Shown here piece by piece: positions 2,711 through 39,189 of a stretch of DNA of 64,000 nt. The notes below the pieces were generated by a model. That model searched no databases, was not told the origin of the DNA, and saw only the letters and a program-made list of their open reading frames with translations. The stretch lies in the NCBI GenBank assembly GCA_032718475.1, contig JAUCBJ010004237.1, forward strand, positions 1 to 64,000. Direction: 5' to 3'. A program made the translations under genes and the position numbers. This DNA is from Nemertoderma westbladi. Taxonomy: Eukaryota; Animalia; Xenacoelomorpha. How positions within the stretch are numbered: position 1 is the stretch's first letter; each line of letters starts with the position of its first letter.

Positions 2711-3280
2711 CTAACGCCTTCTATCCGTATATGAGTGATGGGCTGAAAGAATGCACTTAACCAAGGAGCACTTTGTGAATCCATCCCAATTACCATTGAC
2801 CTTCTCCAAAAGTGTATGGAGGCCCAACTTCTTAAAGGAAAACTTTGCCAGAGATTTGGATGTTGTTTTTCCGGCGAAAGAACACTTTTTAGCTAATTCT
2901 CTAGTCATGAGATATTCTTCCATCTGTCTCAATACAGCTTGTTTCATATTGGAACCACCGACTCTTTGCAAAGCAATAAATGTCTTTGGATCGGCGATTA
3001 ACGTGACAAGTTCATTCTTCATTTTCGCTCTAATTATTGATTCCGTAACATCCTGTTGCAGGTTACTGTGACTCTGACTATCTACACGTTGACTTAACCT
3101 CACTACTTCCTCCTTAATTTGACCTACCTTTGTGGCAATACTCATGAGCGTCAATCGATTATTTTTTGACATTAAAAACGTCGATATATTTAACTGACGA
3201 TCTGACAATCTTTTTAATTCTGGTGGTTCTTCTGGCAAGTCCTGATCAACAACTGAAATAACTTCCGAATCCTTATCAAC
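2711..3280 (-). pseudogene. C-terminal half of EnSpm-associated accessory protein (DUF4806/BEN-like), split by LTR insertion
   Basis: Motif GGSNMKQAVLRQMEEYLMTRELAKKCSFAGK..KFSFKKL. It joins 15707-16260 in frame when the LTR element and one TCAAC are removed (..VTPVD|KDSEV..). Confidence 0.75.
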
Positions 3281-3825
3281 TGTTAGCTTATTCAATCCCG
3301 CTAACACCCCATAAAAGTTAAGCCGATAAGCAATATTGGGGGCCACGAGATTGGGTAATCACCAACTCGTGTCACCCCAATAAAATGGGAAGGAGAAACA
3401 CAATGAGGGTCAGGGGCCAAACCCCTAACCCAGAGAGAACAGGTGGAGTGAACGGGAACACTCCAAAGGGCGCCAACAAGGGTATCAACCAATCAGAGGG
3501 GGGAAAGGCATCGATTAGGTAGAGTAACAAGGCCAACCCGTGCAATATAGCCAGTTGGCAGTAATCATTTCCTTCAGTTATCTCAGTATCATATTGGTGC
3601 TAGTTAGGTTAGTTAGTTTAGCTAGGGAAGGACCGGGACTTTAATTACCGTATCCCGCCTTCCGGATACGACAACATTATCCATATCTATGCTTATATCT
3701 ATATACCCGTACAACCGATTATTATATACGATGAACGACACGAACTCTTTTTACCTTTCACACACGGCGGGGACGCGTGAACTAAACAACCGGATAAACC
3801 GGGATCCTTCCTGGATCCCGTCACA
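3281..3825 (+). repeat. 5' LTR
   Basis: TGTTAGC...CCCGTCACA. It matches 15162-15706 with three substitutions seen by eye. TATA-like AATATAG at ~3544 and TCAGT Inr-like motifs at ~3574-3587. Confidence 0.97.
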
Positions 3826-3899
3826 GTAATTAAAACTCAGAGCTGCCGCCCTAGCTAGCTAAACCCAGCGACTACCAGCCACCAATCGAACCAAGCGAG

Positions 3900-5162
3900 A
3901 TGAGTCAGTCGGGAGAGACGACGCCGACGCGGACCCCGGACGAAGAATTAACGATCCGCGAGGCCGCAACCAGGCGGTACAGGCCCACAACGCCGGACCC
4001 ATCGGTAACGGGTCATCCGGCAGCTCAGGATGAGGGGGGCCGCCTGGAACCCGAGGTCGAGCCGAGAGAAGGAGAGAGCGAGACGGAGGGAGACGGAGAC
4101 GAGTCGACACGAGACGCGGGTCGACGTACTGATGTCGCCGGCCAGCCACAGGCCGAAGGCGACGAGCGGCCCACCGAAACGGCGACGGTGGGGCCGACGG
4201 TACAACGCCGGACCCGAAGAGACGGAGGAGATGTCGGTACCGATGTCGCCGGCCAGCCACAGGCCGAGGGCGACGAGCGGCCCACCGAAACGGCGACGGT
4301 GGGGCCGACGGTACAACGCCAGACCCGGAGAGACGGAAGAGAGGTCGGTGACGAGGACGTCGGGGTTTCTGATCGACTTCGACGGGCCTACAACGCGACC
4401 CGGAGACTATTAGAGGAGGCCAGAGGAGGGGCAACGATAGACAAGGTAAAACTAAAGAAAGGACTAGGTGAGTCGAATAGACACTTTTATTATCTAATGC
4501 GCTTCGGGCAAAGAGAACTGGCCAAGGAGAGAGCGAGAGGGGTTGCCGAGGAACTGTATGACTTATGGCGGCATAGGGGTATGGAACCTAGCGTAGTGTA
4601 CGTAGGGCCGTACTTAGTCGATGCCCGGGGAGTAAAATTAGTGGGTTGGGAGAGACCTGAGGAGGACGAATCCGAGGTTAACCCCGAGGATTCGGCCTCG
4701 TCGGTCGGAGGAAGTTCCGGGAGGCGGGGGAAAGTTAGTAGGACGGGGAGGCGGAGGGAATCCGTTACAACTGATAAGTCTGCTACATCCTCCGTAAAAG
4801 AAAGACGGGTGAGAGAGATAAATGCCACGTACCGTCTCGATTTAATAGAGCAAGGTCAAAGGGAAGTGGGTAGACGGTTAGAGGAGGGGAGAGTGCTGCT
4901 AGAGAGGGAAATGGCGTTGATTAAGGAAACCGGAGAGAGGGCCGAAAGGGCCGCGAGAAGCCTTAGGGAGTGTGAGGAAGTAGGGAGGAAGGAACAAGAA
5001 GAGCGCGAGGCGAGAGAGAAAAATGAGCGCAAAGAGCGTGAGGCGGAACGTAGGGAACGTGAGGCGAAAGAGGAAAACGAGTGCAAAGAGCGCGAGGAGA
5101 GAGAGAAAAACGAGCGCAGAGAGCGTGAGGCGAGACGAAGGGTGGGCGGACAACGGGATTAA
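3900..5162 (+). pseudogene. gag: BEL gag N-terminal region (E/R-rich coiled coil, 111-bp internal duplication), broken by an internal deletion
   Basis: ATG 75 nt after the LTR. A 37-aa repeat starts at 4131 and 4242. The V.PEDSASS motif is typical of BEL gag. At ~5146 the sequence jumps to the equivalent of position 535 of the left copy. Confidence 0.8.
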
Positions 5163-5436
5163 ACCCAGAAGTCGCGGAATACATACCGGCGAGTAGGCCA
5201 GAAGCTGATAGGCCTATACCGGTACCAGCACAGCAGTATGACTACAGCATGCAGGGACATAACATATACCCAGGGGAGGGGGGAATTATTGCGGATAGGT
5301 GTATGGGCCCCAATATATTAACATCAACCCCAGTACCAAACATACCGGTGGGGGGGGGGGGGGGGGGGGGGCAGGGTGACATACCCCATCACAATATCAA
5401 CAATATACCCCGATAGGAGCAAGAACAACGAGACCC

Positions 5437-8400
5437 TTGGATGAAAATAGGTCGTGTGACACAGAAATATGGAGGGGGCCGCTACCCCCGATGACATACC
5501 CAAGTCAAAGAAGATCGGGAGATAGGACGGACAAACCGCACCAGACAGGAGAAACTATACAGCACCCATCGAATCCATTGGAAGCGCAGGCGATGGGGAT
5601 GGCCACGTTGATCGATGCGTTGAAAACGAGGATCGAGTTACCACCCGTGGAACCATTCAAGTTCGATGGGAGTAGGCCGGAAGAATATCTACAGTTTCGG
5701 CGCATGTATAGTAACGAAATACTAACAAAAAACTTGACGCAGGCGGAGTGCCTAAAGTATCTGCAAGTATACACGGGAGGCCCAGCATACGATATCGTGA
5801 GGCAATATCAAGGAATAGAGGGCGGCTTCACGACAGCATGGCGGGCACTGGACAGGGAATACGGGCACCTGGCCAAGATCATCAGACAGACACTGAGAGG
5901 CATAACATCGGGTGGCCTACAGGATAATCCCGTTAGCATTAAGACGTTCGCTAACAATGTCGAAAAGGCGCTAATCGTGCTGAAGACGCTAGACGCGCCA
6001 TACGAGCTCAACGCGTCCAATGACATCACCACGATAGCGCAGGCACTACCGAACTGGCTGCGCAACAAGTGGAGGAAGATCGCTTTCTCCACTCGAGACA
6101 AGAAGGGTGCGGAACCGGGTTTAGAAGAAATGTCAAGCTTCTTAAACTACGAGGCTGAACGAATAACTGACCCAGTCTATAGCGAAGATAGCCTGGGAAA
6201 GGGACCGAAGACGGATTACCATAGACCGAAACCAGAGCACAATACATCAAACGCATTACCGAGGCTCAGGCAATCATTGCCATATGCAGCGACGCAGGGG
6301 ACTGCAAGTCCACAGCTAGCCGAAGATAAGACAACACCATGGAACGGACAGGGGAACAATAACAACACGAATAAATATAACCCCAGTACGTCCAGTAGGC
6401 CGAATCCAAACAATAAGAATAGTAGGGACTTTGGTACAAACGCAGCTGCGATACGCAATGCGCTGTATAAGGAGGGCTACGACCCAAAGAGCAAATGCCA
6501 GCTACACGCAAATGCGCTTCATCAAACCATGAACTGCAGGTACTGGCAGGCGCTACCTAGGCAAGATCAGATAGATTATGCGTTGAGCAATAAAATCTGC
6601 TCGCGATGTTTGATGAGTGGACATAGAGCAAGGGAATGCAAGGAGAAGCCGGTCAAGTTTGGTCAAAGGAGAGGCCAAACGATGGCGACGAGCACAGTAG
6701 GGGCGAAGAAGAGAGGAACGGTGTTACTTGGAGTAGTACCCGTGCGAGTGATTGGGGAAGGCAATCGATCAGTAACAACACTAATGCTGGTTGATAGTGG
6801 AGCTGCCTTCACATTAGTCGAGGAATGGGTGGCCGAAGAGATAGGATTGAAAACGAGGCCAAGCAGAATGGCGGTAACAACCATCTCTAGCAAAGATGAG
6901 ATCCTGGAGATGAGAACAGGACGGTGCGCAATTGCAGCAGTGGCACCGGGATGCGACTATGGGGCAACCATCGACCCCATCCAAGTGATAGAGTCAATTA
7001 ATATCAATGCCAGGCAGCCAACCAACATCGAGGTCGAGCAATATAAATTCCTGGACGACATTGACTTCTCAATCCCAGACGTGGACGTTAGGAAGGTATC
7101 CATCATAGTAGGAATGGATTGCCCAACGGCCCACGAAAGAATGCAAACGGTCTTCGGCGAAGACAAGCAGTGTGACCCGGTGGCGATATTAACACCATTC
7201 GGGTGGACGCTGAGTGGCCCAATCAAGACCAAGATACCATTTAGGATGTTGGAGACATCAGGATGCATGTTCGCGGGAACAATGCAGGAAATGGGTGATG
7301 AGGGAGCAGAGGAGCAGCTTAAAAGACTGCCCAGACAAGTTTTCGAGGGACTAAAAGAGACCGGGGTCGGGACCTCGGTAGAAGACAAGCAGGCTTTACA
7401 AAGCGTGGAGGAATCGATGACATGCAGTGAGGGGCGGTATACTATAGGAATGGTATGGAAACTACCGAAGATACTGCTGCCCGATAATAGAGGGATGGTA
7501 CTCACAAGACTCCGCAAGCTGAAACAAACACTAAAACGGAGCCCCGAGTAGAATGAGTACATCCACAGAACGATCAAGAAGTACGTCGAGAAAGGATGGG
7601 CCGTGGGGTTACCGGTCGACGAACCGAACACGGACAGGACATATTACCTGCCACTCCACGTGGCTTTAAACCCAAAGAAAGGTAAACTGCGGATGGTAGT
7701 TGACGCATCGGCAAAGACCAATGGAAAATGCTTAAACGACTACCTGTTAGAAGGCCCAAACATATACAACTCGGGCATAGAGGTGCTACTTAGATTTAGA
7801 AATGGGAAACACACCTTCACGTATGACATAGAAGGCATGTTCAACCAAGTCCGTGTAACGGAGGAAGATAGCGACAGTCAACGCTTCTTATGGTATAACG
7901 GCGAGGAAGAACCGTCGATAATACCGGCATATAAGATGGTAGTACAAAACATGGGAGCCAAGTCGTCTTCATTTACGACGACTATGGCAGTGAGGGATAC
8001 AGTGAAAGGGAAGGAAGATAGATACAGCACTAGGGCCGTCGATATGATTCGACACGGCTTCTACGTAGACGACGGAATGGAGCCTGGAAATACGGTTAAG
8101 GAGATACTGGACACGGGGCGCGAGGTTCGCGACATCCTAAAAGGATCCGGCTTTAACCTGACAAAATTCCAATCCAGTTCGGAAGAATTTATCAAGGCGA
8201 TAGAGGACAAGAGGCCAGAATCGACCATGGATAATCCCACAACAGCCAAAGGGCAGGACATGGCGAATAAGAGAACAGAATCTCAACAGAAGGCATTGGG
8301 AATCGTGTGGAACAGAGAGACAGACGAACTGAAGTATCAGCTGAGCCAGGAGGGCGCAGACATCCACACGAAGAGGGGCTATGTATCGTATATAGCAAGG

Positions 8401-10698
8401 ATATACGATCCCCTAGGCCTAGCATCCCCATTATTAGTCACGGGGAAACAGATACTCAAGAGAGTATACAAATTGAAGGATGAGTGGGACGTAGAGGTAC
8501 CAGAGGAAATCAAGAAACAGTGGAGTAAGTGGACAGGAGACTTGGAGAAGATGGGAACATACAACATGCCACGAGTGTATTTCCCGGATGGGAACATGAC
8601 GAATCTGGACCTACACATGTTCTCCGATGCGTCGTTGGAGGCGTACGGAGCGGCACTCTACTTAGTACAACGAGAGGGGGCTCATAAGCCCAGACTAGCC
8701 TTTAGCAAAGCAAAGTCAACGCCGCCAGATTCAGCATCAGTTCCCAAGTTAGAATTGACAGCTGCGAGACTAGGAGTTAGAGCCACAGCCTACCTAGTGG
8801 ATACTATTCCCAACATAGTGGAGACACACTACTGGACGGACTCCATGGTAGTGCTTGGTTGGCTACATAATGAAAGGACGAGATACCCAATATTCGTCGC
8901 AAATAGAGTGGACGAAATAAGGGCGACCACAGAACTGGAAAGGTGGCACTACTGCCCAACGGACGAGAACCCAGCGGACTTGTTGTCGAGGGGCGTGGTA
9001 CGCCACACTTTCTTGAAGAAGGAAGTATTGTGGCAACATGGGCCACAATTTCTGAGCGATAAGGAGGCCTGGCCGCCGATGAAAAAGGTGGACCCGGGCT
9101 CAGAAGTAGTGTCAGAGGGAGAAGAGGGAGATTCAGAGGGAGAAGAGATATACTCCCGGATGGTGAGGGAGATTAGAGACGTGCAACCAAGACGAGAACT
9201 GTGCGATAACCCGACGGATAAACTCCTCAGCTACAGTTCTAGTTGGTATAAGACCAAGAAACTAGTGGCGTACTGGAGAGCCTTCAGGAATTTCCTCGCG
9301 GGAGTTGGCAAAGACAAGATCAAGACATACATAGATCTGGAAGGAGTGGCCAAGGCAATCATCCGCTATGAACAACGGAAGAACTATGGCGACGAGGTAG
9401 AACGCGTCGGTAACCAACAGCACCTCCGACGGGACAGCGAGCTGATCACGCTGTCGCCACAACTTAATGACGACGGGATTCTAGTAATGAACTCTAGGGT
9501 GGGATACAACAATAGCATAATCGTACCACCGAAACCCATCATCATTCCAACAGGATCGCCAATAGTTCACCAGATTATCTGGGACTCCCATAAGTCGATA
9601 TTGCACGGGGGCACCAACCGAACCCTCACCGAGATAAGGAGGACCTTTTGGGTCAAACAGTTGAGGAAGAAGGTAAAAGCGGTGGTGGGGCAGTGCCAGA
9701 CCTGCCGACGAGCGAAGAAGGAGCGAGCCATACAAGAGATGGCGCCACTACCAGCGAGTAGAGTAAGACAACACGACCCGCCATTTACGCATTGCGGTGT
9801 GGACATGTTCGGGCCGATAAAGATAAAGGTGATGCGGCACACGGAGAAGCGCTACGGTATCATCTTCGTATGTAACAACACGCGGGCGGTAGGGATAGAA
9901 CTCGCCCAAGATGCAACCGCATCAGCATTCATTAATGCCTTAGAAAGGTTTAGAGACCGCAAAGGTGGGACGATCGCAGTGATATACAGCGACAACGGCA
10001 CCAACTTTGTGGGCGCAGAGAATGAGATGGCAGAAGCCTTGGACATCTTGGAAGGGGAGGAAGTCAGGGCGGCCATGAGACGACGACAAGTAAAGTGGGA
10101 GAGAAGGACGCCGTATGCACCACATACACTAGGATGCGTCGAGAGACTGGTGGGCAGTTCAAAGCGTCTAATGACGAAGCTAATGAACACCCACATGGTC
10201 ACTGAGGACGTCCTGAGAACAGTATTGGCGAAGTGTGAGGGTATCATTAATAGCAGACCGCTATATCCGGAGAATGATGACCCTGAGTCACTAGACATGC
10301 TGACGCCTAGCCATTTTCTAATGGAAAGGCCAGCGACCATCGATATGCGGGGTGTAGATCCAGACGACATACACTCCCGCCAGAGTTGGAAAGTCGCTAA
10401 AGCAATAAGCGCCGAGTATTGGAGGAGGTGGGTCGAAGAATACCTGCCCATGCTCCATAAAAGAAGCAAGTGGAGGAAGCAGAATAGGGAGTTAAGAAAG
10501 GGAGATCTCGTAATCGTTACGGATGATACTATCATCAACAACCAATGGCGGTTGGCGAGAGTTGTAGGCACTTACTCCGACGAGGACGGAAGAGTCCGAT
10601 CGGTAGAAGTGCGGATAGGTGGTAAGATAGGTGCGAAGGACAGAAAAACCTACAGGAGAGCTGTAGGGAAATGCTGTCTGTTAGAAGGGGCACCTTAG
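5437..10698 (+). pseudogene. pol: BEL/Pao gag-pol polyprotein (capsid, CCHC, protease, RT, RNase H, integrase) with one in-frame TAG at 7549-7551
   Basis: LVDSGA; YLPLHV..KLRMVVDAS; FYVDD; YDPLG; FSDAS; WTDS; NPADLLSRG; H..ILHGG..CQTC; VDMFGP; SDNGTNF; ERLV. ORFs 5437-7551 and 7603-10698 are in the same frame. Confidence 0.96.
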
Positions 10699-10860
10699 TG
10701 GAGTTAGAGAAGTGTTTAGTCGTCCAAGCTTTGGACTGAGGGGGGTGGGATTGAGGGCGAGACGCCCTTCCAACACATAAAAAAAAAATAATAAAAAAAA
10801 TAAAAATAAAATAATAGTACATAGTAGGTACGCAGTTAGTAGGCAGAAGTTAGTCAGTAA

Positions 10861-11400
10861 GAAGGTACGTAGTACCTAGAGTTAGTTAGTTAAGAGGTAC
10901 GTAGTACCTAGAGTTAGTTAGTTAAGAGGTACGTAGTACCTAGAGTTAGTTAGTTAAGAGGTACATAGTACCTAGAGTTAGTTAGTTAAGAGGTACGTAG
11001 TACCTAGAGTTAGTTAGTTAAGAGGTACGTAGTACCTAGAGTTAGTTAGTTAGTTAGGAGGTATGTAGTACCGCTAGTTAGGAGAGAGTTAGAGGTACGT
11101 AGTACCTAGAGTTAGTTAGTTAGTTAGGAGGTACGTAGTACCGCTAGTTAGGAGAGAGTTAGAAGGTACGTAGTACCGTTAGTTAGAGAAGAGTTAGAGG
11201 GTACGTAGTACCGTTAGCTAGAGAGTTAGAGGGTACGTAGTACCGTTAGTTAGAGAAGAGTTAGAGGGTATGTAGTACCGTTAGTTAGAGAGTTAGAGGG
11301 TACGTAGTACCGCTAGTTAGAGAGTTAGAGGGTACATAGTACCGTTAGTTAGAGAAGAGTTAGAGTTAGAGGGTATGTAGTACCATTAGTTAGAGAGAGA
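10861..11400 (+). repeat. Tandem array, 16 units of mostly 32-36 bp, each with hairpin core GGTAC-GTA-GTACC and TTAG/GAGA linkers
   Basis: Cores counted at 10865, 10897, 10929, 10961, 10993, 11025, 11061, 11095, 11131, 11166, 11201, 11233, 11268, 11300, 11332 and 11373. Confidence 0.95.
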
Positions 11401-11898
11401 GAGTAAGAGGTAGAAGGGTATATAAGATATAGATATTAGTTAGCAGTTAGTAGCGAGAGGGAGGCATATGAGTACAGTTGGGTAAATCGTGTGGCCACAC
11501 GACGCATACTTCTGTACTGCACAAGCCCACAGAGTAGGCCAGAATGTGGATTAGAGAATAGAATAATCCATAGGCAATAGTAAGTAGTAGGACAGTAGAA
11601 TTAAAATTAAACTAAAAATAAATAGATAGATAAAAATAAATAGAATAGGGCTGAAAGTTACAAATTATGGCAACACTAGGAAAGTTATTCTGGAACATAA
11701 TAAAAGTAACGGACAGAAATCGAAATTAGGGTGTATTTACTAGCTTCAGAATTAATTAGTAAGAATTTAGGCTAAAAGGGCGCAGTTAAGTAAGGAATAG
11801 GCCATTATCGGACTGTACAGAACATCTTAGATACATCACTCATCTGTATTGCGCCTTGGTAAGGCACCACCTTACAGGTGAGCGAGTGAGTGTTCGGA

Positions 11899-14441
11899 AT
11901 GGCGAGCAAATTGATCAGAAAGAGAAAGGCGGAGTCAGGAGGAAAGGAGATACTGGTGGATTTCACCGAGAGGCATCCGGAAGAGAAGACGAGAGGATAC
12001 TACGAGAGGTTGGAAAGGGGTCACGCGGCACGAGCGCTGCAGGATCACTTCCGGGAGATGCACGAACAGCGGCTGGTCGGGACCTACGGGACGCCGTCGC
12101 TGGACAACGCGATCTTCCAACACTTCCACTACGTGGTGAAAGGGGACGATGCGAAGTTCAGGATTCCGAAGTACCCGAGGGAATCACCGAGGAAGGACTG
12201 GAAGAGATTCATAGAGTCTGTCAACAGGGGAGGATATATGATCCTAGACGACGAGGGAACCGTGGAAGACGAGGCGGGTTCGAGACGAGGATCGGCGGGG
12301 TCGGCCAGGACCATACTCCTACATTTGGCCGCACCAAATGGGGACATCTTCTTATTCGATCTAGGAACGTATGGGAAGAAGGACGGGCCAAAATTAAACC
12401 GGTTGCCGAAAGCGGTACAAGTCTTGGTAAGAGAGAAGTCGACGACGAAAGTAGGATCGGCGATTCGCGAGGATGCGGAGAGAATCATCGGTCCGGACGC
12501 CACCAACCTCCTGGATATGCAGAAGGTCTTTATGGCTATGACGGCACCGGATGGGTTGGGGGTAGTCGAAAACACAGGCCAATGCGGGGCAGTGGCAATG
12601 GGCCAACTATTGGGGCTCGTGTGCCACAAACCGATGGACTGGGGGAAGTTCAGGGAAGAATACGGAGCAGAACTAGCGAACTCGCTAAAGTGGGGAGCGA
12701 GACCGGGAAAGCAAGAGGTATATCAATTCCGCAGAGGAGCGATAAAGGTATATCAGAAGCGATATATCCTGCAGGAAGACTGGATGATGATAAGTTTGCT
12801 TAACTTATTTATGACCGTGGTTATCGAGAGGGAACCAGCGGCATTTCTGTTATCAGGATCACCCCTAAGCTACAGGAGAGCCTTTAAAATGGCCTCCGAC
12901 TGTCTGGCAGACCACCCGGGGCTGAAGGGCGAGTCGGTGTACTACAACAGCCGACATCTGGTAGACGGGGAGACAGATACGCCGTATCAGAGATGGGAGC
13001 AGCTAGAAACGGATAGACGAGAAGCAAAGCGACTGGAAGAAGTCGCTAGATGGGAGAGGATAGAAGCAGAGGAGAGGGAAGAGGAGGCCAGGACGCAGAG
13101 TTACGTGTTCGAGGAACAGGCAGGCTTAGACGAACTTCATTGGACTTCGTCAGGGAGTTCGGGGGAGTCTCTAGGGCGAGAACTGGGATGGACGGTGGGA
13201 TCACCGAAACAGTCGACGTCGGGGTTGCAAGAGATGCCCATACCAGCGGGCGCCGAAGGCGACCAACCGCCAAGGAAGTTAAGGGAACTAGAGGGATGGA
13301 GAGCTACGGGCGAGAGCCAAGGCGGGAAGGGACATAGTGGATCCATCGGGATACCGGGGTTGGAGCCACTGCCAGAGGAGGAGGATGACGACGAGTTCGG
13401 AGAGATGCCGCCCATCGAGAGGATAGGCCACTCGGACACGGACTGGGTTGGCGGAAGGGTGGTGACGGCCAGTGGGCGAGGGCCTTCTGGAACAGATCCG
13501 GTAAACGGACCTGGGTGCACGAGGAGCCGGCGATGGATTTCGCGGGGAGCACTATCAGGTTGGGCGAGCAACCGGGGACGGCACCACGGATAGTATTCGG
13601 GGAGACGATGCCCGAGAGGGGCGGAGAGATCGACGTAGACAGGGACACCAACGTAGAGAAGTTCGCCTACCAGCGACTCCACAGACCGCGGAGATCGCTT
13701 GGGACGAAGGACGACGTGGGGCCGGAGACATTGGTACTCGGCTGCAACTACTGTGGCAGGCAGACCCACCAGGAAAGGAGCTGCTTGTACCGGTTCCAAA
13801 AGGGAACCTTTTGTCTCTACTGCCGAGAGCCGAGCCACAGGATGGGGGCGTGTCCACGGTTGCATAACCGATGTCCAAAGTGCAACTTTCGGGGACACTA
13901 CGGACGCCAGTGTGACTGGATGGACGACGAAGAGAAGTTCAGAAGATTCGAGGAGTGGGCCGACGTCGGGGCCATGACGCGCCAGCGCATGAAGGCCCAG
14001 GAGTTCAAGTGGGGTTTCTTCCTTATCAATCAGGAGGCTCACATGGAAATCATAAGGCGGAGGCTACCGTTTACCTATCAAGAGGTAGCAACAGCAGCGT
14101 CGTATGCCGGAGTGATGAACACACAAAGATATTTGGACAGGTGGACGCCACAGAACTGAGGGGAGTTTAGGGATTTCTTGGCGGAGCACGTGCCGCGAGC
14201 AATGAAGATGATCCTATGGGACGCCATCAGAGGGAGACAACAGGGCCACTCTGAGGGGCCACCGGCGAAGCGATATCAGGCACTAATAACACCAGCGCCC
14301 AAGGAGCCAACAACCGGAATCAGCAGGGAGGTGGCGGCGAAAGTCCGAAAGCAGAAAGCGGATCCCAGAGGAGCGGTGGTAACCAAGAAACGACCCAGGG
14401 AAGAGGATGCCAGGGGGAACTATCCCCAGAGGAACAGATAG
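11899..14441 (+). pseudogene. ORF3: DEDDy-type 3'-5' exonuclease (WRN/EXD/Mut-7-like) + acidic linker + three CCHC zinc knuckles; one frameshift (~13419) and one in-frame TGA (14157)
   Basis: ExoI YMILDDEG; LLHLAAPNGDIFLFDL; LPKAVQVLVREKSTTKVGSAIRED (ExoII); NLLDMQ; KWGARP...QKRYILQED (ExoIII-like). Knuckles CNYCGRQTHQERSC, CLYCREPSHRMGAC, CPKCNFRGHYGRQC. ORFs 13515-14159 and 14178-14441 share a frame. Confidence 0.82.
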
Positions 14442-15123
14442 GTTCCCAGGGCCGGGGGGAGAGAAACTGAGACTTGGACGTGGTACGCCTGGAAGGCGCC
14501 GCGTGGGACGTACGAACTATTAAGTACAAATTAAGCTGATGCAAATAATTAAATAAGTGCAATTATATGTACGTACGTAGTAATCAGTAGTTTAGCAATA
14601 AAATATACGTTCGGAGTAAGTACTATAGTCATACAACCTTTCTCAATTAGCTACTGGGACTGGGGGGATAACTGACTATGGCACTATGAATGAGACACCA
14701 GACGATTTCACACTTCTTGAGTGCGACGGCACAAGAGGGGGGGGGGGGGAGATTCGTCAGAAGGGATGAGGTAGTCGAAGCGGGGTTGAGGGACGGAGTA
14801 ATAGTGCGAAGTGCGGAGAGAGTGCGGACGCAATTCTAGTGTGGGGGGGGGGGGGAGAATAAGAGGCTGAGTGAGGGACGAGGAGGTCCGAGGGTATGAG
14901 AGAGTTAGGGTGAGAGTGGAGAAGAGATAGGGCGAAAGTGTTGGGGAAACAAAAGTCGCGTGAGAGGTGAGCGCGATCGGCCCGACATGGACGCCAGGCA
15001 TACAGGGTAGCGTTATCATACCCATAGGGAGCAGCCTGGAAAGCCGGCTCCGAGAGAAAAGAATTCCACCCCACACCCGATACTAGATCGGGATCCAGCG
15101 GGATTGTAGCGCACTTAAGGTGG

Positions 15124-15161
15124 ATGCTATCTTCTCACCGGGAAGATAGCATGGGGGGGAG
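15124..15161 (+). promoter_or_regulatory. Polypurine tract (GGGGGGGAG) preceded by a perfect 11-bp hairpin
   Basis: ATGCTATCTTC-tcaccgg-GAAGATAGCAT (15124-15152), then the G-tract abutting the 3' LTR TG at 15162. Confidence 0.85.
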
Positions 15162-15706
15162 TGTTAGCTTATTCAATCCCGCTAACACCCCATAAAAGTT
15201 AAGCCGATAAGCAATATTGGGGGCCACGAGATTGGGTAATCACCAACTCGTGTCACCCCAATAAAATGGGAAGGAGAAACACAATGAGGGTCAGGGGCCA
15301 AACCCCTAACCCAGAGAGAACAGGTGGAGTGAACGGGAACACTCCAAAGGGCGCCAACAAGGGTATCAACCAATCAGAGGGGGGAAAGGCATCGATTAGG
15401 TAGAGTAACAAGGCCAACCCGTGCAATATAGCCAGTTGGCAGTAATCATTTCATTCAGTTATCTCAGTATCATATTGGTGCTAGTTAGGTTAGTTAGTTT
15501 AGCTAGGGAAGGACCGGGACTTTAATTACCGTATCCCGCCTTCCGTATACGACAACATTATCCATATCTATGCTTATATCTATATACCCGTACAACCGAT
15601 TATTATATACGACGAACGACACGAACTCTTTTTACCTTTCACACACGGCGGGGACGCGTGAACTAAACAACCGGATAAACCGGGATCCTTCCTGGATCCC
15701 GTCACA
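15162..15706 (+). repeat. 3' LTR
   Basis: 545-bp direct repeat of 3281-3825, followed by TSD TCAAC. Confidence 0.97.
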
Positions 15707-16260
15707 TCAACAGGAGTCACGACATTGCGGCGCCTGTAAACTGTTTGGCCAGTTGGAGCAGGTAGAGAAGTGGTATTTTCAGTTTCCTCTATCGAAAAAG
15801 GACCAGGTGGTTCTGCCATTCGTGTCTCAACTACATTTGTACGGTTAGAATCTACCAGTGGTCGTTTTGAATGATGTGCTTGTTCATCTTCGGAAGAAGC
15901 CTGAGGTGGGCCCATTCGCTTGTACAATGGAAAATGGTGGCGCCTTCTTGCGGATTCCGACTTGGGGACAACCCGAGGAGTCAAATTTAATAGTTGTTCG
16001 AACCTATAGCCAAGTCTCTTCATGTCTCTGGCCTTATTCAATATCACATTAAACTCTTCATCGCCTAAGAAACCATGGGTTAGTATATTTACATCACATA
16101 ATTGTCCTTCATAATTCACCCTATAGTTACCACCTTGAAGCTTTGGCTTACCGTCGTAATCTTCTACCTCAGACGATAAATCAACAATGAATATTGAATT
16201 GTCCGCCCTGCAGTACACAATAGCATTTTTGTAGGTATCATCAACGTCATTGACATCCAT
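15707..16260 (-). pseudogene. N-terminal half of the EnSpm accessory ORF
   Basis: ATG at 16260, 16 nt past the end of the transposase. Open to the LTR junction and in frame with 2711-3280. Confidence 0.75.
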
Positions 16261-18213: not shown

Positions 18214-19719
18214 ACTACTGACGTAGCTTTGGCAGTATGGTGTACTGGGAGACTGGTATCGTTAAAATAGACCTAAAATAGGCTAATCTTCTTCGGGAAT
18301 AATTAATCCGGCACAGTCTGGCGATCTGGCACAGTCGGCACAAACTAAAATCGGAAAATAAACTAAAATAATAGGCCTACGCCTACTACTACCGGCTGAC
18401 CCGTACCGGTACCGTACTGCGTACCGTACTGTCAGACTGTATTAGAGTAGGCCTCAGGCCTACAGTAGTGGGCAGTAGAAACATTTTGGCACCTGGCATG
18501 CCATGGTGGAATTGTTACAAGAAACCTAGAAGTTTCTTCCGCGCATTTGAGAAATGCGCGGCTTAACGCCGCCTAATGACGATTTTTCACCGCACAGCGG
18601 AGCGTGACAAGTCTATGCCGCCGAACCCACTTGGTGTGAATCTGAAACTGAACTGAGTAGGGCCTACCGGTACCAGTATTGAGTAGCCTACCGGTACCGT
18701 GAATGTACCGTAGCAATGCAATTTAGCAGTTCAGCAATTAAATCTGCCACCATCTGTAGGCCTACCCTACAGGTCTATGTCTATTGTCTATCTGTCTATG
18801 CCAATCTAAAACTATGCCATTTAAAAAATTTCCAATCGCTCCGCTCGCATTTACATTCGCTAGGCTATTTCATATTTAAACATTTAAAGTACCGGTACCG
18901 CAATTTATTATATACTAGAATAAACTATAATTTAAAAATCTTCTGGCATCTTCCATCTTCCACATACATTGTGGAAAATATACCGAGCCAGCGTATTTTC
19001 TTACCATAGGGAGGCCTGTATATGCTGAATTGCTGACATCATGCCTTCCACGTACTGCATACAGACGTAATAGTAAAAATACAGAAGTACGCGGCGTATC
19101 TTCCGCGTAAATTCAAGCAATTCCAGTCTGGCTGGCGTAGCCTTGCACGGAGCCGGCGCAAGGTTTTTTCACCCGGTGTGGCTTTGCACAGAGTTGGCGC
19201 AGGATTTTTTGCACCCGGGTCGCTTTCGGCGCAGGAAACAGGAAATTTAAACTTTTCAAAAGAGGGTACCGGTACCGGTAATCAGTGTTAAAAAATTGTC
19301 TAGAAAATCGTAGGTCCAGTACCGGTCACCGGTACCTAGGTGGTGTGTACCAAATTAATTTGAGCCGCTTCTACTAATGTACGGGCACGACGGTTGCCAG
19401 AACCGGGTGCCGGGTACTATGCCTACAGTTTATAGTACCGGTACTACCATAGAACCTACTAAGTTTACAGGACGATATTTTTTTTAATATATATATTATA
19501 TATAATATAAGTTTAAATTAAGTAAAAAAAGTTAGGGAATATGACTGTAGGGTGTGAGATCAAGTTGTTTTAGTATAATAATATAAATCTTTTTGGAATA
19601 GTCATAAATTGGAAGTTGTAACTCGCCGCGCACCAACCTTAAAGAATATCCTTGCGCCATCCAGACTGAGGTGTACAACTGAGGTGTACTTCATCTAGTG
19701 ATTTTCTAGGAGTTCATAA

Positions 19720-20185
19720 ATGTGACAGAGCGGCATGTGTCCCCTGTAAAGTATTATTACCTTTAAAATATGTCAGCTCAACAACTAACAAAAGCCACAG
19801 GGTTTATATAAAGAATGATTTATCTTGCAATGCTAAAAATGTTATTTATGTGGTGACTTGCCTTAAATGTAACTTATTTGGTATCGGTTCAACAGAGGAC
19901 TTAAAGCCTAGGATAGCCAACTACAAGACAAAGATAATTAATGACAAACCATCGACTGCCATCGACAGACATTTTACTACCTCGGGTCATTCGTACAATG
20001 CACACTTCAGAATTACACCATTTGATTGTCTACCGATCTCAGCAAACAAAAAACTGAACCGACAAAAACTCAGAATTAAAGAGGGAGAATGGCAGTGCCG
20101 GTTGGAAACTTTACAACCAATGGGTTTGAATGTTCTCAACAAGGCGGTGATCAATAACTTTGGACTTGATGTTTTCAATCCTTAA
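19720..20185 (+). pseudogene. Penelope GIY-YIG endonuclease domain (copy 1)
   Basis: C...C..C...SCNAKNVIYVVTCLKCNLFGIGSTEDLKPRIANYK...HF...GH...EGEWQCRLETLQPMGLN. Confidence 0.88.
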
Positions 20186-21002: not shown

Positions 21003-22408
21003 CCCTATTAAACCTGGGGGGGTGGGGGGGGTCAATATGACCCCCCCCGTGGTTTTTTTATTATAATTCTGAAACAAACGCAGTTGGGAATCTGAAATTT
21101 TATGACTTTTCCTAAAAATCTATTGTCTTCCTAGTAGTGAAAACCGTTTTCAAAAATATTGGGTACTTTTCGAGTTATAGCACCATTTTTTAACCCTACT
21201 TTTGGCACTTTTTTTGAGACGTTTTTTGAAAATTACATTTCATTAAATATGAATTGTAACATCTCTATTTTTGATTTACACCGTTTTTTTGGTGTTAGAA
21301 ATTTGATGGAATTCATATAAATTGATTTAGAAATTTCGAACTTGTTTTTTTCGGTGGGTGCCAAATTTTGGTGCCAGCACCAAATTTTGAATTATGTCAA
21401 TTTTGTAATTTGATTGTTTGAAACTTGTTTTTTACGCAATTGGGGTTTTTTGGGGTTCTGGATTCGATGAAATATATACGAGTTGCACCAAGCGTATCAA
21501 ACTTGTATTTTTCGGTGCTGTGTGCAAATTTTGGTGCTAGCACGAAATTTTGAAAATTCATTCGATAGATAAAATTGCTTGTGACAATTTATTTCTTGCG
21601 TTTTAGAGGTTTATGGCTGTTCTGAATTCAATGGAATAAATAATTATCGAACTAGACATCTTAAACTTGTATTTTTCGGATGTGGGTGCAAAATGTGGTG
21701 CTAGCACCACATTTTGCACCCGCTTCCGAAAAATACAAATTTGAGATGCCTAGATCGAAAATTATATATTCCATTCAATTCAGAATAGCCATAAACCTCT
21801 AAAACGCAAGAAATAAATTGTCACAAAGAATTTTATCAATTGAATGGATTTTCAAAATTTTGTGCTAGCACCAAAATTTGCACCCACCACCGAAAAATAC
21901 AAGTTTGATACGCTTGGTGCAACTCGTATATATTTCATCGAAACCAGAACCCCAAAAAACCCCAAATGCGTAAAAAACAAGTTTCACACAATCAATTTAC
22001 AAAATTGACATATTTCAAAATTTGGTGCTGGCACCAAAAATTGTCACCCGCCGAAAAAAACAAGTTTGAAATTTCTAAATCAATTTATATGAATTCCATC
22101 CAATTTCTAACACCAAAAAACCGGTGTAAATCAATAATAGAGATGTTACAATTCATATTTAATGAAATGTAATTTTCAAAAAACGTCTCAAAAAAAGTGC
22201 TAAAAGTAGGGTTAAAAAATGGTGCTATAACTCGAAAACTACCCAATATTTTTGAAAACGGTTTTCACTACTAGGAAGACAATAGATTTTTAGTAAAAGT
22301 CATAAAATTTCAGATTCCCAACTTCCCAACTGCGTTTGTTTCAGAATTATAATAAAAAAACACCGGGGGGGGGGGGGTCATATTGACCCCCCCCCGGGTT
22401 TAATAGGG
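21003..22408. mobile_element. piggyBac-type fold-back MITE (almost entirely palindromic, ~1.4 kb)
   Basis: TTAA|CCCTATTAAACC...GGTTTAATAGGG|TTAA. Arms mirror each other to a centre at GTGCTAGCAC (~21697-21706). No transposase. Confidence 0.9.
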
Positions 22409-32733: not shown

Positions 32734-33310
32734 TTCTAAAAAAAATAGAAATGCACATAAAATATTATGTTGCTCGCAAGAATTTTTTTATTTCTATTAG
32801 ACAAACCTTCAATATAACTGTATGACATCATAATATATGAAATGGAGTAAGGGAAAGGCGAGAAACAAACTGACAAAGGTATGTAAATCTTTAGCTGTCA
32901 GTATATTCTTGAATGGAATTTTGTTAGAAGTGGACTCCTTCCATTCAAAGTTTCAGAGCTTTAACATTAGGCAATGCTTGCAGTATTTGGTTCGTTCTAA
33001 AAACAGATTTCATGTGTGAGCATAGTTCCCCATAATGTGTTACTTATATTACTATATTACTATTATTATTACTATTATTTATATGACACTTACTTGAATT
33101 ATTAACAAATGTTTCATTAAATTTTTGTTCAGAATAATATAGATCTCTCTTTTTCTTCAGTATTTATCTTCTTCTTCTTCTTCTAATCCCTTGAATGATT
33201 GATTTTATCAAAACGCGTAAAGATTAGTTATCAATGAAAGCTTAATGATACTATAATAATAATAATAATAATGGTATCGGATAAATACAATTATGTTCGA
33301 AATTTATTAA

Positions 33311-36300
33311 TAGAAATGTTTTTAATATTTGGAGCTCAATAAGGCAAATATATTTCGATTTATATTAAAATCATTATCAATAATAAGCACTATAGGTAGG
33401 TTGTAAGTATGTTATGAAATTGTTATAATTACTTGGTATTTCTAGCAAACTGCGATATACTAACTGTACCGTACATTATACAACATCTGTATGTGCTGAT
33501 ATGCACCAATTGTATTATTACCCATTAACCAATCAAGGCCCACCACTCTGTCACCCCTATTATTACCTCACTGTATTTCTACAGCTTACCGAGCTCAACA
33601 TTACTCATTCACTATAGTTGATCTCATTTCTGCAGTTTCCCAAATGGAAACTCCCCCTATTAACACTCTTTATTACATTGTATTCTTGACTCTTACGATA
33701 TTTTTACGTTTATATTATTAGATCTCTTATTATGTATTCATGTTCTTGTATTTCCGTATATCTTATTACCCCTTACCGCTTATAATCCTATATTATTATC
33801 TTATATATTGTCTATAATAAATACGCTCCTAATTGCCAATCAAATAAACAAATTATTCTTCATGGGATGTAACCGTGTAAACTGGGTGAAATCCATCTAT
33901 AGTTGAACATATTACAATCACATAGATCATCTTATTGTTTTATACACAAGAGCATATCAATCGCTCTTACAATCGCTCTTCTGTCTTGATTGAAGTGTCA
34001 CTAAGTATTCGCGTACCCAGCGGGTCCAAAAATGATTGGCTAGTAACTGAGCCTGGCGCCATTTACGAGTTGAGTATGTATCACTGTCATAGATGGGACC
34101 TGGTGGTAAATTGTAAGCAGGGCGCTGTAATAGAAGGTGGTTCGGAGTTAAGATTTCATCAGCTTTAGGGTCATTGGTACTAAGGCACAAGGGGCGGCTG
34201 TTTAGAATGCACTCTACTTCTGCTAATGATGTCACTGACATGTCATCTGTGACAAGAGAATTGCCAAGGACCTGAAACAGAACTTGTTTGATTGAACGGA
34301 TCAGCCATTCATATACACCACCCATATGGGGGGTGTACGGTGTTATAAATTTCCATGTAATGCCCTTTGGGCGCAGGGCAATATCGATCTGATGTTCCCA
34401 TAGTTCCAGGTTTTGCCGTAATTCTGACTCGGCACCTACGAAGTTTCTCCCATTGTCTGAAACTATTTCCTTTGGCGAACCTCTCCGTGCTTTAAAACGG
34501 AAGAACACATTGATAAAGGCATCAGCTGATGCATCAGCAGCTACATCGAGGTGTACTGCTCTGCAGTTAAGGCACGTAAAGATAAAGGCATAACGCTTTA
34601 TAGAACCTCTCCCGTATTTGACCTTTAGTGGACCAAACATATCAACGGCTGAAAACGTAAATGGCGGCTCATATGGGGTCAGTCTAGAGGACGGCAATGG
34701 CGCCATAAGCTGATTCACACGTGGAGCCTTACATTGCCGACATTTAAAGCACTTACGTATTAAAGACTTGCAGAAAGTGATAAGGCCAGGGATCCAATAG
34801 GATTCCCTTACCTTGGCAACTACTTGGTTGGGACCGGCATGTAATAAATAGATGTGCCAGTGCCATACTATGACATTTGTAAGTGGGTGTAACTTACTCA
34901 AAATTATAGGGTGTTTTGTATCGTAGGATACTGGGGCGGAGGTAATGCGGCCACCTACCCGCAATAAACCATCCTGAGTTAGGATTGGGGCTAGATTAGC
35001 TAGTGGGCTTGAGCAAGCTACTGGGGATGATTGCAGTAACATTTGAATTTCGTTAGGATAAGATTGCCTCTGTGAGAAATAAATCAGACATCGTCCAGCA
35101 TGGTGACGTTCACTTACCGAGACAAATTTACCTTTAAGATTTAAGACCGAATTTGGATTTAAAGAATACTTGCAAAGACGTAAGATCCATGCGAACAGAG
35201 TCTGTAATTTATTCCATGACGAATGTTTAGCTATAAGTGAACCTATAGCATTAAATGCTGTGTTAGAATCAATGTGGACATTAAGAATTATTTCAGAGTC
35301 AGGATTGTGGTATGGTGTCTGTTCTTCGACAACTATGTCAAACCAGAAGTCTGTCATGGTGATGTCATCGTTATAATCAATATCAGATGACACCAATATA
35401 TGAGAAGTTAGCACATCTGGGTTATTGATTAGTGTATTAGTAATAGTTTCTGGGCATATGGTTGATACTGTCGTCCATGTTTCCTCGGGCTGAACGAGAA
35501 AAGGAGGCCCATGCCACAATTTCTGTGAATTAATGAGCTTGACTGCTGTAAGCCCACGAGTAATGTCGTCTGCAGGGTTTAAATGACCAGGTACATGTTG
35601 CCATTGTGAACTGGTTGTACGATCAAGGATATACTTAGTGCGGTTGTGAACAAAACATCGAAATTGCTTGATGGTGTTGTTTATGTACCCAAGTACGACA
35701 GTAGAGTCTGTCCAAAAATAACATTTAGCGATTGGTAAGTCTAGGGATTCTAACACAGTTTCACTTACCTGCGCTGCTAAAACTGCAGCTTGGAGCTCTA
35801 ATCGAGGAACTGAATGTCCAGAGGCTGTACGAACTAACTTACCTTTGCTGAAAACGAAAGATGAATTTATTTCATTATCACTTACAGATTGGATGTACAA
35901 TACTGTACCGTAGGCCACTTTAGAAGCGTCTGAGAAAATATGTAGCTGGTAGTTGATTGGAACCGAATGGACGGGGATGTACATCCTAGGGATTTCCAGT
36001 TCGCTAAGCATAGGAAGTTGATCTCGCCACTTCATCCATTGACGTGCTGTATCTGGTGGGAGTGGGGTATCCCAGTCTAATTCCATTGACCACATTTTTG
36101 CTATAACTAATCGACCTGCTATGATTAATTGGCAAGATAAAGTTAATGGGATCGTACAATGAGCTAGTCAAAGAGACGCATCCCCGTTTAGTTAATGGTG
36201 TGTTTTTAAGCACATAGGAGAATATGAAGTTATCTGAATTTGTGTCCCAGGAAACTCCAAGGGCACAGGTTATAGGAAGATTATCAAAATCTAAGTTAAT

Positions 36301-38652
36301 GAAGGATTTTGCCTTTTCTGAATCGGGAAAGGCATCTAGGAATTGTCTAGAATTGGAGGCAAATTTTGTAAGGTGAAAGCCACCTAATTTGAGGCAATCT
36401 ACCATCCCAGAAGCGATGTGAATAGCTTCAGAGACAGATGCTGCACTTTTGAGGCCATCATCCACATACATGTGGCGATTAATGGCATCAATCACCTCCG
36501 GGTTAAAATGACTGGCATTATCAATAGCAGTTCGTTTGACTGATCCTGATGCCACAAAGGAAGAATCGCAAGCACCAAATATATGTACTAACATTTGGTA
36601 AGTCTCCACTGTGGTAGAGCCATCGGGCTGCCACAAAAAGCGAAGACTATCGGCATCGCCTGGTGTGACTCTCACCTGGTGGTACATTTCCTTTATGTCG
36701 CAGGTGAAAGCCACAGGATATTGTCTAAAACGCAAAAGAATTCCAATAAGGCTACTGGTGAGATTAGGACCTTCTAACAGTTGACTATTGAGGGACATCC
36801 CTCGGTATAAGGCAGCAGCATCATTTACGATCCTTGTCTCACCAGGCTTGTTGGGATTCTCAACAAAATGATGGGCGAGGTAATATGTCTGTGGCCCTGG
36901 TGTTATCTCACATGGTAGGAGTTTGCGAGCATAACCCTTCAAGACATAATCGTCTATTTTTTGTTGATAAAGGGCATGGATATATATGTGGCTTACGATG
37001 TAGCTGACGGATTAAATATGCGAAACTAGATTTTGCCATATTATAATTATTAATTAATAATGGAGGTGAGTCCCTCCAGAGCATTCCTACCTGATAGTGA
37101 CCATCCACTAGACGTATTGACTTAGAAAACATTTCTAATGCTTTTAAGTCATCCATGGATGGTGATAGAAACTCATCGATCAGGGGTGAGGGTTTTGGGT
37201 CTGAAGGTGAACTTTCAGCAAAACTCTGAAATTTCATCCATTGAGTGACCTGTTTAGAGATGTCGCGGTCTGTGCAAGGGTCACTGACTGTGATGTGATT
37301 AAACTGTGTTACTGTACTATTGGGTTCAACTGCTTTACAGCTCACAGGACCGATTATGCACCATCCAAATGGTGTCCTAATTGCAGAGGGATTAGGGTTC
37401 CCAGCCTTTGGGAATACATGTACATCCCTAGCTAGGGCCTCAGGATGGTTACCACCAACCAGAATTGTGATTGATGGGATATCAAGATTAGGGCAGCATG
37501 TCACATATGGCAATATGTGATCTAAGTGCTGGAGCGTTTTAGGACACAGTTGTGTTACATCATATGAGTAATCCCTTTTGAAATCGGGGGCTACAAATAC
37601 TTGAGGCATGTTGATGACAAAATTGGGTTTAATTTCTGGCTGTCCTTTGATAGGTGAGATACTACATGATATTTCCCCTAAAGAAACAGACATATTTGAT
37701 TGGAAGACAGTACTAACATTAAGAGAAGTAGTTTCGGGAATGATACCAAGAGTATCAGTTACATTTTTGTCAACAAATGTCGCAGTAGACCAATCAGTGC
37801 ATCAGAGCAGTGCATATGTAGTGAGTGATTTATTGGCAATGCATATGGTTACTGGGACTACTGATAACCATACGGGTTGTACTTTGGCAATTGATAAGTG
37901 TACAGACATGGAATTGTACGATGGAACTGAAACATTATTACAGTTACATTATTGGCTGCCCCCATTCACAGCCGTTTATCCTATACAGATAAACAGCTGT
38001 ATTATTCCCTTCACTCCTGTTCAGCTACATTAGGTAGGTATCTCCACTGCGCTACAACCCCTTATTACCCATTAACCAATCAAGGCCCACCACTCTGTCA
38101 CCCCTATTATTACCTCACTGTATTTCTACAGCTTACCGAGCTCAACATTACTCATTCACTATAGTTGATCTCATTCCGCAGTTTCCCAAACGGAAACTCC
38201 CCCTATTAACACTCTTCATTACATTGTATTCTTGACTCTTACGATATTTTTACGTTTATATTATTAGATCTCTTATTATGTATTCATGTTCTTGTATTTC
38301 TGTATATCTTATTACCCCTTACCGCTTATAATCCTATATTATTATCTTATATATTGTATATAATAAATACGCTCCTAATTGCCAATCAAATAAACAAATT
38401 ATTCTTCTTTATACAGTAATAATGTAATGGACAATTGTATGTGTAATATTCAGTCAGTGCATATCAGCACATACAGATGTTGTATAATCTACGGTACAGT
38501 TAGTATATCGCAGTTTGCTAGAAATACCAAGTAATTATAACAATTTCATAACATACTTACAACCTACCTATAGTGCTTATTATTGACAATGATTTTAATA
38601 TAAATCGAAATATATTTGCCTTATTGAGCTCCAAATATTAAAAACATTTCTA
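33311..38652. repeat. Composite A-B-[BEL fragment]-B-A' structure
   Basis: A (33311-33506) is inverted at 38457-38652. B (33515-33861) is repeated directly at 38062-38407. Confidence 0.85.
33978..37980 (-). pseudogene. pol: Second BEL/Pao family pol fragment (PR-RT-RH-IN), frameshifted and truncated at both ends
   Basis: YYLAHH.V, RIVNDAAA, HMYVDD, FSDAS, WTDS, NPADDITRG, HAGP..CFKC, VDMFGP, SDNGRNF, LNSRPL. The sequence breaks at LQSRQK. Confidence 0.93.
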
Positions 38653-39189
38653 ATAATAATAATAAAAATAAAAATATTAGGCTAAAAACTGAAAACTTTT
38701 TACCTGTAACTCGACAGAGTCAAATATGTAAAGTGATGATCTGATTTGTGTGTTGCTCTTATGTGTTTTAGTGGAATTTTGAAGGAATTTTCTGGAGTGC
38801 CAATTGGGTTGTATCGGGAATAGGTTTGAATCAGATGAAATAATAATCATGGAACAATAAAAAAATTACATGATGTCACTAGGGGGACCAAGTCTGACCA
38901 TGTAGTTGACCAGCATTCATTCATGGGTTGTTTAAATGCGACCAATAAATTTAAAGGTTATGAGACTATGAAAAAATCAGACAGTAGACAAGTAATTTTT
39001 GACAGAATGTTGAAAAAGTTTAAGATTGTTAATGTCTGGAGAAAAGCCCATTGCTCTATATTATTGTGTTCCTTATTAAAATAATTAATCGAGTTTATCT
39101 GTCTAGACCTGCCTCGATCAATGAAAAATACGTGATTACCCTTGGTGCCATTGTGACACATCATTCATGATTATACTAAGAGTATACTA

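Follow-up and report, generated by a model that had tools for sequence, protein, structure and literature searches.

A young BEL/Pao retrotransposon of the xenacoelomorph Nemertoderma westbladi carries, between pol and the 3' LTR, a third gene whose product has three zinc knuckles and, very probably, a remote DEDDy exonuclease domain of the WRN/EXD2 type. The element lies in the 64,000-nucleotide stretch that we analyzed (contig JAUCBJ010004237.1 of assembly GCA_032718475.1, positions 1 to 64,000), here called the window. Known third genes of BEL/Pao elements are envelope-like. DEDDy third genes of LTR elements have already been published; new here are the BEL/Pao host, the WRN/EXD-like domain, the triple knuckles, and a changed catalytic ligand. 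Feature coordinates are collected in the table.

Table. Features of the BEL/Pao element and its third gene, in window positions
Feature	Position	Strand	Remarks
5-bp target-site duplication, TCAAC	left 3276..3280, right 15707-15711	+	
5' LTR	3281..3825	+	545 bp, TG..CA
Primer-binding position lacking a TGG start	3826..3834	+	exact reverse complement of LTR 3640-3648; weak, post hoc
gag and protease region	3855..7551	+	one canonical CCHC, at 6598
RT, RNase H (Peptidase_A17), integrase, DUF5641	7552..10698	+	Pfam
Tandem array	10848..11365	+	period 32, ~15 copies; between pol and third gene
Candidate internal promoter, TATAWAWR match	11419..11426	+	only plus-strand match in element
Candidate splice acceptor	11870..11877	+	donor-like on 3' side too; 21 nt before ATG
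Third gene, ~850 codons	11899..14441	+	breaks in this copy: ~13473 (frame), 14157-14159 (stop)
Predicted DEDDy-type exonuclease domain	12199..12890	+	D117, E119, D192, Y289, E293 plus adjacent D294
Acidic, Gly/Pro/Ser-rich linker	12891..13700	+	contains frame break
Three tandem CX2CX4HX4C zinc knuckles	13743..13913	+	
Basic C-terminal tail past stop	14160..14441	+	
Polypurine tract	15151..15161	+	adjoins 3' LTR
3' LTR	15162..15706	+	545 bp

The host element spans 3281-15706. Its LTRs, which run from TG to CA, show 3 differences over 545 bp (99.45% alike), and both are flanked by TCAAC. Pfam matches above the cut-off in pol are DUF1759 (E-value 4e-10), Peptidase_A17 (1e-40), Integrase_H2C2, and DUF5641 (8e-24); RVT_1 and rve score below the cut-off in the element. 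The order is gag–PR–RT–RH–IN, with Pao-specific Pfam families present. From the likeness of the LTRs, the target duplication, and the Pfam set, we conclude that this is a young BEL/Pao insertion, in agreement with the classification first given to it. Specifically, the element shares with BEL/Pao elements (Semotivirus), as outlined in PMC3601003, the LTRs, the 5-bp duplication, a DUF1759 Gag, protease, RT, A17 RNase H, integrase, and DUF5641. It departs from them in its nuclease–knuckle third gene, in the absence of a TGG-type primer-binding site directly 3' of the 5' LTR, and in having a single canonical Gag knuckle.

Several smaller observations concern the same element. The gag gene is split into two frames near a run of G at ~5350, with a stop at 7549-7551. 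Within gag 6481-6750, the canonical CCHC is preceded by a C-H-H-C variant and a third finger is absent; the finger set is identical in a partial upstream copy. This partial relative occupies 1-2596: positions 535-2596 are 96% alike to 5146-7208, different sequence in the same gag frame precedes 535, and the likeness ends abruptly at ~2600. The unit of the 32-nt array has a GTACGTAGTAC core.

The third gene begins with the ATG at 11899. Frame A is open up to 13593, and frame B is open from 13389 to the stop codon, beyond which the same frame runs on to the end of the gene. The frames are open as the initial annotation had described them for an ORF of ~850 codons in the env position with an in-frame stop at 14157. 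All of the motifs quoted there, ILDDEG, LLHLA..IFLFDL, KVGSAIRED, WGARP, and YILQED, are found, and its three knuckles are confirmed, starting at 13743, 13812, and 13872; a six-frame scan of the window yields only six CX2CX4HX4C matches, and these are three of them. The predicted nuclease domain is intact in the present copy, both breaks lying farther 3', and its candidate catalytic residues have their codons at 12247 (D117), 12253 (E119), 12472 (D192), 12763 (Y289), and 12775 (E293). A membrane-like segment is absent from all three ORF pieces, whose top 19-residue mean hydropathies are 1.35, 0.36, and 0.43, and the gene is therefore env-like in location only. The env position assigned earlier stands as a place between pol and the 3' LTR; the protein has no env-type hydrophobic segment, and an env function is rejected, no segment exceeding a 19-residue mean of 1.35. 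Basic clusters at either end, RKRK (11899-11946) and KKRPR (14390-14410), resemble nuclear localization signals.

The exonuclease assignment of the N-terminal part (N-part) rests on profile comparisons. References were PF01612 matches from 61 bacterial genomes, of which 38 stretches were taken, together with the 120 that were listed out of 148 longer proteins, retrieved with a 12-sequence alignment. Filtering for redundancy and removal of four polymerase or HRDC rows reduced 117 domains plus 17 loci to 66 WRN/EXD-like domains, and a lower-ranked, partly eukaryotic subset of these formed a 29-domain profile. A first profile, from 17 bacterial EXD-like proteins, placed the N-part above 500 of 500 shuffles, yet at only 3.6 bits. 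The 66-domain profile gave 14.9 bits (pairwise E 6e-7; best of the shuffles, 5.5), and the 29-domain profile gave 17.7 bits (pairwise E 8e-8; best of 500 shuffles, 4.0), with none other of 278 window stretches exceeding 3.5 bits. Similarly, hhalign scored the N-part at 39.2 (probability 73%), whereas none of 150 shuffles scored above 21.7 and the reversed sequence reached 13.0. Scores above shuffles in both the profile and the hhalign comparisons bear out the WRN/EXD-like homology that had been proposed from motifs. Profiles of two other groups were less discriminating: the N-part was equaled by 142 of 500 shuffles with a 13-sequence bacterial RNase D profile, which is shallower than the EXD profile and lacks Rrp6, and by 125 of 500 with an eight-sequence Pol I profile. 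Pfam gave no HRDC match.

The firm alignment covers residues 135-215 only. Once the hhalign threshold is relaxed, ExoI (D117, E119), the W motif, and ExoIII (Y289, E293) fall in register. MAFFT returns the same D117, D192, Y289, and E293, but assigns the Glu of ExoI to E123 instead of E119. In the aligned model described below, the ExoI D-x-E of D117 and E119 lies on the first strand. At ExoII, D192 is matched by D in 40 of 44 references and by E in the remaining four. At ExoIII, the canonical Y-x3-D is altered. Y289 is kept, E293 stands where 44 of 44 references have D, and D294 follows; this replacement agrees with the earlier description of ExoIII as non-canonical. A W..RP/Q..Y region had also been put forward as ExoIII. 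That assignment is rejected: WGARP is the conserved W motif, and YILQED takes the ExoIII register, about a dozen residues farther along than in the references. Identity between the N-part and the 44 references is 15-23%.

Direct searches returned little. The N-part has no match in Pfam, NCBIfam, or PHROGs, none among PDB sequences, and none among 1.84 billion representatives, a collection thin in animal repeats. In other collections, likewise thin in animal repeats, matches number none of 6610 candidates in a word-index search with the N-part, none of 125 longer proteins for the knuckle part, none by tblastn against phages and plasmids, none in viral contigs, where four queries produced 3, 2, 34, and 51 pattern matches, none of 99 and of 56 for metagenome contigs, and none of 188 candidates in prokaryote genomes. 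Given that thinness, these blanks do not amount to absence. In the ESM Atlas, 24 of 30 matches belong to the set whose best member is a WRN-like exonuclease cluster. This cluster, 38% of whose members carry PF01612, ranks fourth with a score of 0.93 and 179 shared features, after three unnamed clusters at 0.94-0.95. For the knuckle part, all Atlas matches fall below 0.9 (zf-CCHC, DUF8363, HEXBP-like) and serve as a lead only.

Structure prediction adds a consistency check. AlphaFold run on the lone sequence gave a pLDDT of 32. A model made with the 44-reference alignment reached pLDDT 70 and pTM 0.68, with the expected strand–helix order. A fold search with this aligned model put DnaQ folds at the top (Z up to 12.6, rmsd 3.3, 161 aligned), and WRN, RNase D, Nibbler, TbRND, Exd1, and Egalitarian all came within ~1 Z unit. 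Because DEDDy proteins made up the alignment behind the model, these fold matches are circular, and the model shows only that the N-part appears compatible with a DnaQ fold.

Among known proteins, the N-part resembles members of the PF01612 clan, including WRN, EXD2, Mut-7/Nibbler, Exd1, and Egalitarian, in its ExoI D-x-E, its L-L-A..LF strands, its KVG..I..D ExoII, the W motif, and the ExoIII Tyr. Unlike them, it falls below Pfam detection, has an insert before ExoIII, has Glu in place of the last Asp, and is carried by a mobile element. The closest layout is that of the trypanosome protein TbRND (PMC7797062; PDB 7C42 series), in which a DEDDy domain is likewise followed by tandem zinc fingers; the PDB names its chain a CCHC-type protein. 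TbRND, as that report presents it, is a cellular protein of the RNase D group with four fingers and a linker of fewer than 30 residues, whereas the present protein has three knuckles ~280 residues from a domain that fits WRN/EXD-like profiles better than the small RNase D profile.

The closest precedent among mobile elements comes from bdelloid rotifers, where DEDDy ORF3s were reported in Juno and Vesta and in Athena/Terminon (Rodriguez, Kenefick, Arkhipova 2017, PMC5408684) and are restated in two reviews (PMC6431247, PMC5718144). The initial annotation had mentioned such precedents from rotifers and nematodes. The rotifer ones are real; for nematodes, the literature surveyed contains none. 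Like the gene described here, the rotifer ORF3s in the sections of PMC5408684 used here are DEDDy genes downstream of pol, in the env position and without membrane segments. In both cases one acidic ligand is Glu: the rotifer motif is DEED, its activity not demonstrated in that account, and here the change affects the last ligand. The rotifer hosts are gypsy-like elements in a clade of their own with a dUTPase, whereas the present host is a BEL/Pao element. Going by description, the knuckles also set the two apart, since those sections mention a Cys-His-Cys motif in two families and no triple CCHC. The different superfamily, the different-looking exonuclease subgroup, and the knuckles together point to repeated, independent capture of this enzyme type. 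Open-access literature, which leaves aside Repbase, Dfam, and supplements, yielded no DEDDy or other exonuclease third gene in BEL/Pao. One candidate precedent, PMC6681497, was discarded, as the match in the text available concerns DedD; together with PMC3601003 and PMC6648332, it serves as general background.

The third gene is common to many related copies, present in thousands of contig pieces. Four of seven sequencing runs were surveyed for copies, and three DNA runs from two samples were used. The fourth, which carries another organism label and is RNA by our guess, gave 10 low-depth pieces less than 95% alike and was left out. The three DNA runs gave 4204, 7255, and 4447 contig pieces on 11450-14750, ranging from <90% to >99% alike, with depth in 30 of 30 bins; these pieces are short and do not imply the full-element context of each copy, and summed depth is not copy number. 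A length difference at ~13473 occurs in 49-60% of summed contig depth. The frame break thus belongs at ~13473, and its earlier placement at ~13419 is rejected. Similarly, 76-83% of summed depth differs inside the stop codon at 14157-14159. Much or most depth, as assessed in short pieces, lacks the two breaks of this copy.

Differences among copies carry a coding signature. Substitutions were counted among the 40 listed of 526, with 10 outside the ORF dropped, and among the 40 listed of 45 in a second set. Third codon positions account for 41 of 64 distinct ORF sites among the differences listed (binomial p 5e-7). Broken down by part, again among the differences listed, the share is 7/8 in the nuclease part, 16/23 from 13960 to the stop, and 9/15 past the stop (14160..14441); the linker in frame A shows no bias (4/10). 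The E of YILQED, by eye and among the differences listed, is hit only by a silent one. Length differences, 12 of 47 being listed, are sparse in the ORF: only 2 of the 12 lie inside it, although the ORF makes up 77% of the stretch, and one of these two keeps the frame. Counted as clusters, 2 of 8 listed are in the ORF (p 0.003). These site counts, which are not dN/dS and have no pol or non-coding control, point to purifying selection on the third gene. About one-fifth of summed depth shows no difference at the place of the stop codon. Truncated copies may thus have spread, which would fit action in trans or a dispensable tail. Separately, a joined form that skips 13909-14466, the end of the third gene, occurs in all three DNA runs at a depth of ~400 and represents a deleted sub-family.

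How might the gene be expressed? Presumably it has its own mRNA, either spliced or made from an internal promoter. The initial annotation favored a spliced, env-like subgenomic mRNA and named CCTTACAG at 11870-11877 as candidate acceptor; the site is where it was said to be, 21 nt upstream of the ATG. With 11 pyrimidines of 20, it is tied fourth among the 196 AG sites of the spacer and is one of two in the top eight with a YAG and a branch-like motif. Its CAG is followed by GTGAG, so it also reads as a splice donor. The rival is an internal promoter at the TATAWAWR match. The pattern of a TATA plus an initiator at 20-30 nt is not matched by the 11419 site, and for this motif, as for the donor-like GTAAGT at 11580, ~0.8 occurrences are expected from spacer composition. 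We note that TATA 11419, GTAAGT 11580, and CAG 11877 could form an internal promoter and a leader intron, and that 11419-11877 contains three short upstream ORFs. Depth is lower over 11561-11782 than on either side, which would fit a leader intron, with the limit that contig depth cannot rank parts of the stretch.

Concerning function, our best guess, offered tentatively and by analogy, is that the product works in trans, binding or trimming RNA ends and so weakening small-RNA silencing. The notion is that the third gene would supply a soluble exonuclease domain of the WRN/EXD2 type, and that the three zinc knuckles attached to it would grip single-stranded RNA. The protein would then bind or slowly trim RNA 3' ends, acting in trans. 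Such end binding or trimming would blunt host small-RNA silencing of the element, and the Asp-to-Glu change in ExoIII would weaken catalysis. RNA as the substrate, action in trans, weakened catalysis, and small RNAs as the target are all points that we infer. Specifically, it is the analogy with TbRND that suggests an RNA-end binder or slow trimmer. In the trypanosome enzyme, the tandem zinc knuckles provide the RNA binding needed for guide-RNA trimming, and the fingers are reported to bind single-stranded RNA and to raise small-RNA trimming (PMC7797062). Arenavirus ExoN offers the example of a viral exonuclease turned against the innate signaling of its host (PMC7968707). Counter-defense against small RNAs is the role that would best suit a protein encoded separately, and probably working in trans, in so abundant a family. 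Against it, Rodriguez et al. found that in the rotifer elements DEDDy ORF3 is not clearly linked to copy number (PMC5408684). Should the protein indeed act on small RNAs, the retrotransposon would encode its own counter-defense enzyme.

Close behind, and in our estimate still rather unlikely, comes a non-catalytic RNA adaptor, in which the fold and the knuckles would bind element RNA for export, germ-line transport, or packaging. Its parallels would be Egalitarian and Exd1, which bind RNA through DEDDy folds. Egalitarian is described as binding localization signals, including that of the I factor retrotransposon, with none of its five catalytic residues needed for signal binding (bioRxiv 10.1101/2025.08.03.668247). 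The replacement of the ExoIII Asp by Glu is what such an adaptor might show, and, since the Gag of the element has only one canonical CCHC, the extra knuckles of the third gene could help. Against this, three acidic ligands and the Tyr are retained, the fourth site is still acidic, and an Asp stands next to it. Moreover, the fold search ranks Exd1 and Egalitarian level with active enzymes, and nothing singles them out.

Less probable again is a replication accessory that would trim the 3' end of RNA or cDNA. It might, for example, shorten a piece of the element's RNA as far as the duplex at the primer-binding position and so let reverse transcription begin. There is no TGG site, and the 9 nt complementary to LTR 3640-3648 have a self-priming geometry, in which the would-be primer ends at the first base following the LTR. 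Tf1-like and some copia elements are known to self-prime (PMC4600332, PMC6317226), and 3'-end processing of element RNA was suggested by Rodriguez et al. (PMC5408684). Complementarity of this length arose in 35 of 5000 LTR shuffles at that offset and in 84 of 5000 over five offsets. Against this role, the match is post hoc, AU-rich, and only 9 bp long; in the predicted RNA fold, 3640-3659 pairs elsewhere within the LTR; and a separately expressed protein would need packaging. If the nuclease does make the primer, it would provide a new way of starting reverse transcription. In a bolder version, which we consider a long shot, this would be a BEL/Pao lineage that has abandoned the tRNA primer: a piece of its LTR RNA would pair with the positions directly 3' of the 5' LTR, and the knuckle-guided exonuclease would trim that RNA into a primer. 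Were that true, self-priming would for the first time involve an enzyme, and a nuclease third gene would for the first time have an assigned role, those of rotifers having been described without demonstrated function. An 8-bp hairpin is present at 3800-3820.

Least probable of all is that the gene was captured recently from the host and is carried with no advantage to the element: the present copy is broken twice, part of the depth may share the breaks, and variation in rotifer env and GDSL ORF3s within genomes looked neutral in the account of PMC5408684, but the third-position and frame-keeping bias among copies speaks against neutral cargo, as does the blank result of three large searches for a close cellular relative, which points to a gene that has long resided in the element.

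The rest of the window holds further repeats. A second, smaller BEL/Pao-like element lies on the minus strand at 33515-38407, bounded by ~347-bp repeats that are 98% alike and enclosed by inverted repeats at 33304-33515 and 38448-38659. It has no room for a third gene, and the RT of the main element is 40% identical to its RT. A palindrome at 21082-22323, with 621-nt arms that are 95% complementary and no spacer, stands between direct repeats at ~19863 and ~22409. The nearby ORF 19670-20182 is, we presume, GIY-YIG-like. By eye, the long ORFs outside the main element mostly resemble other mobile elements.
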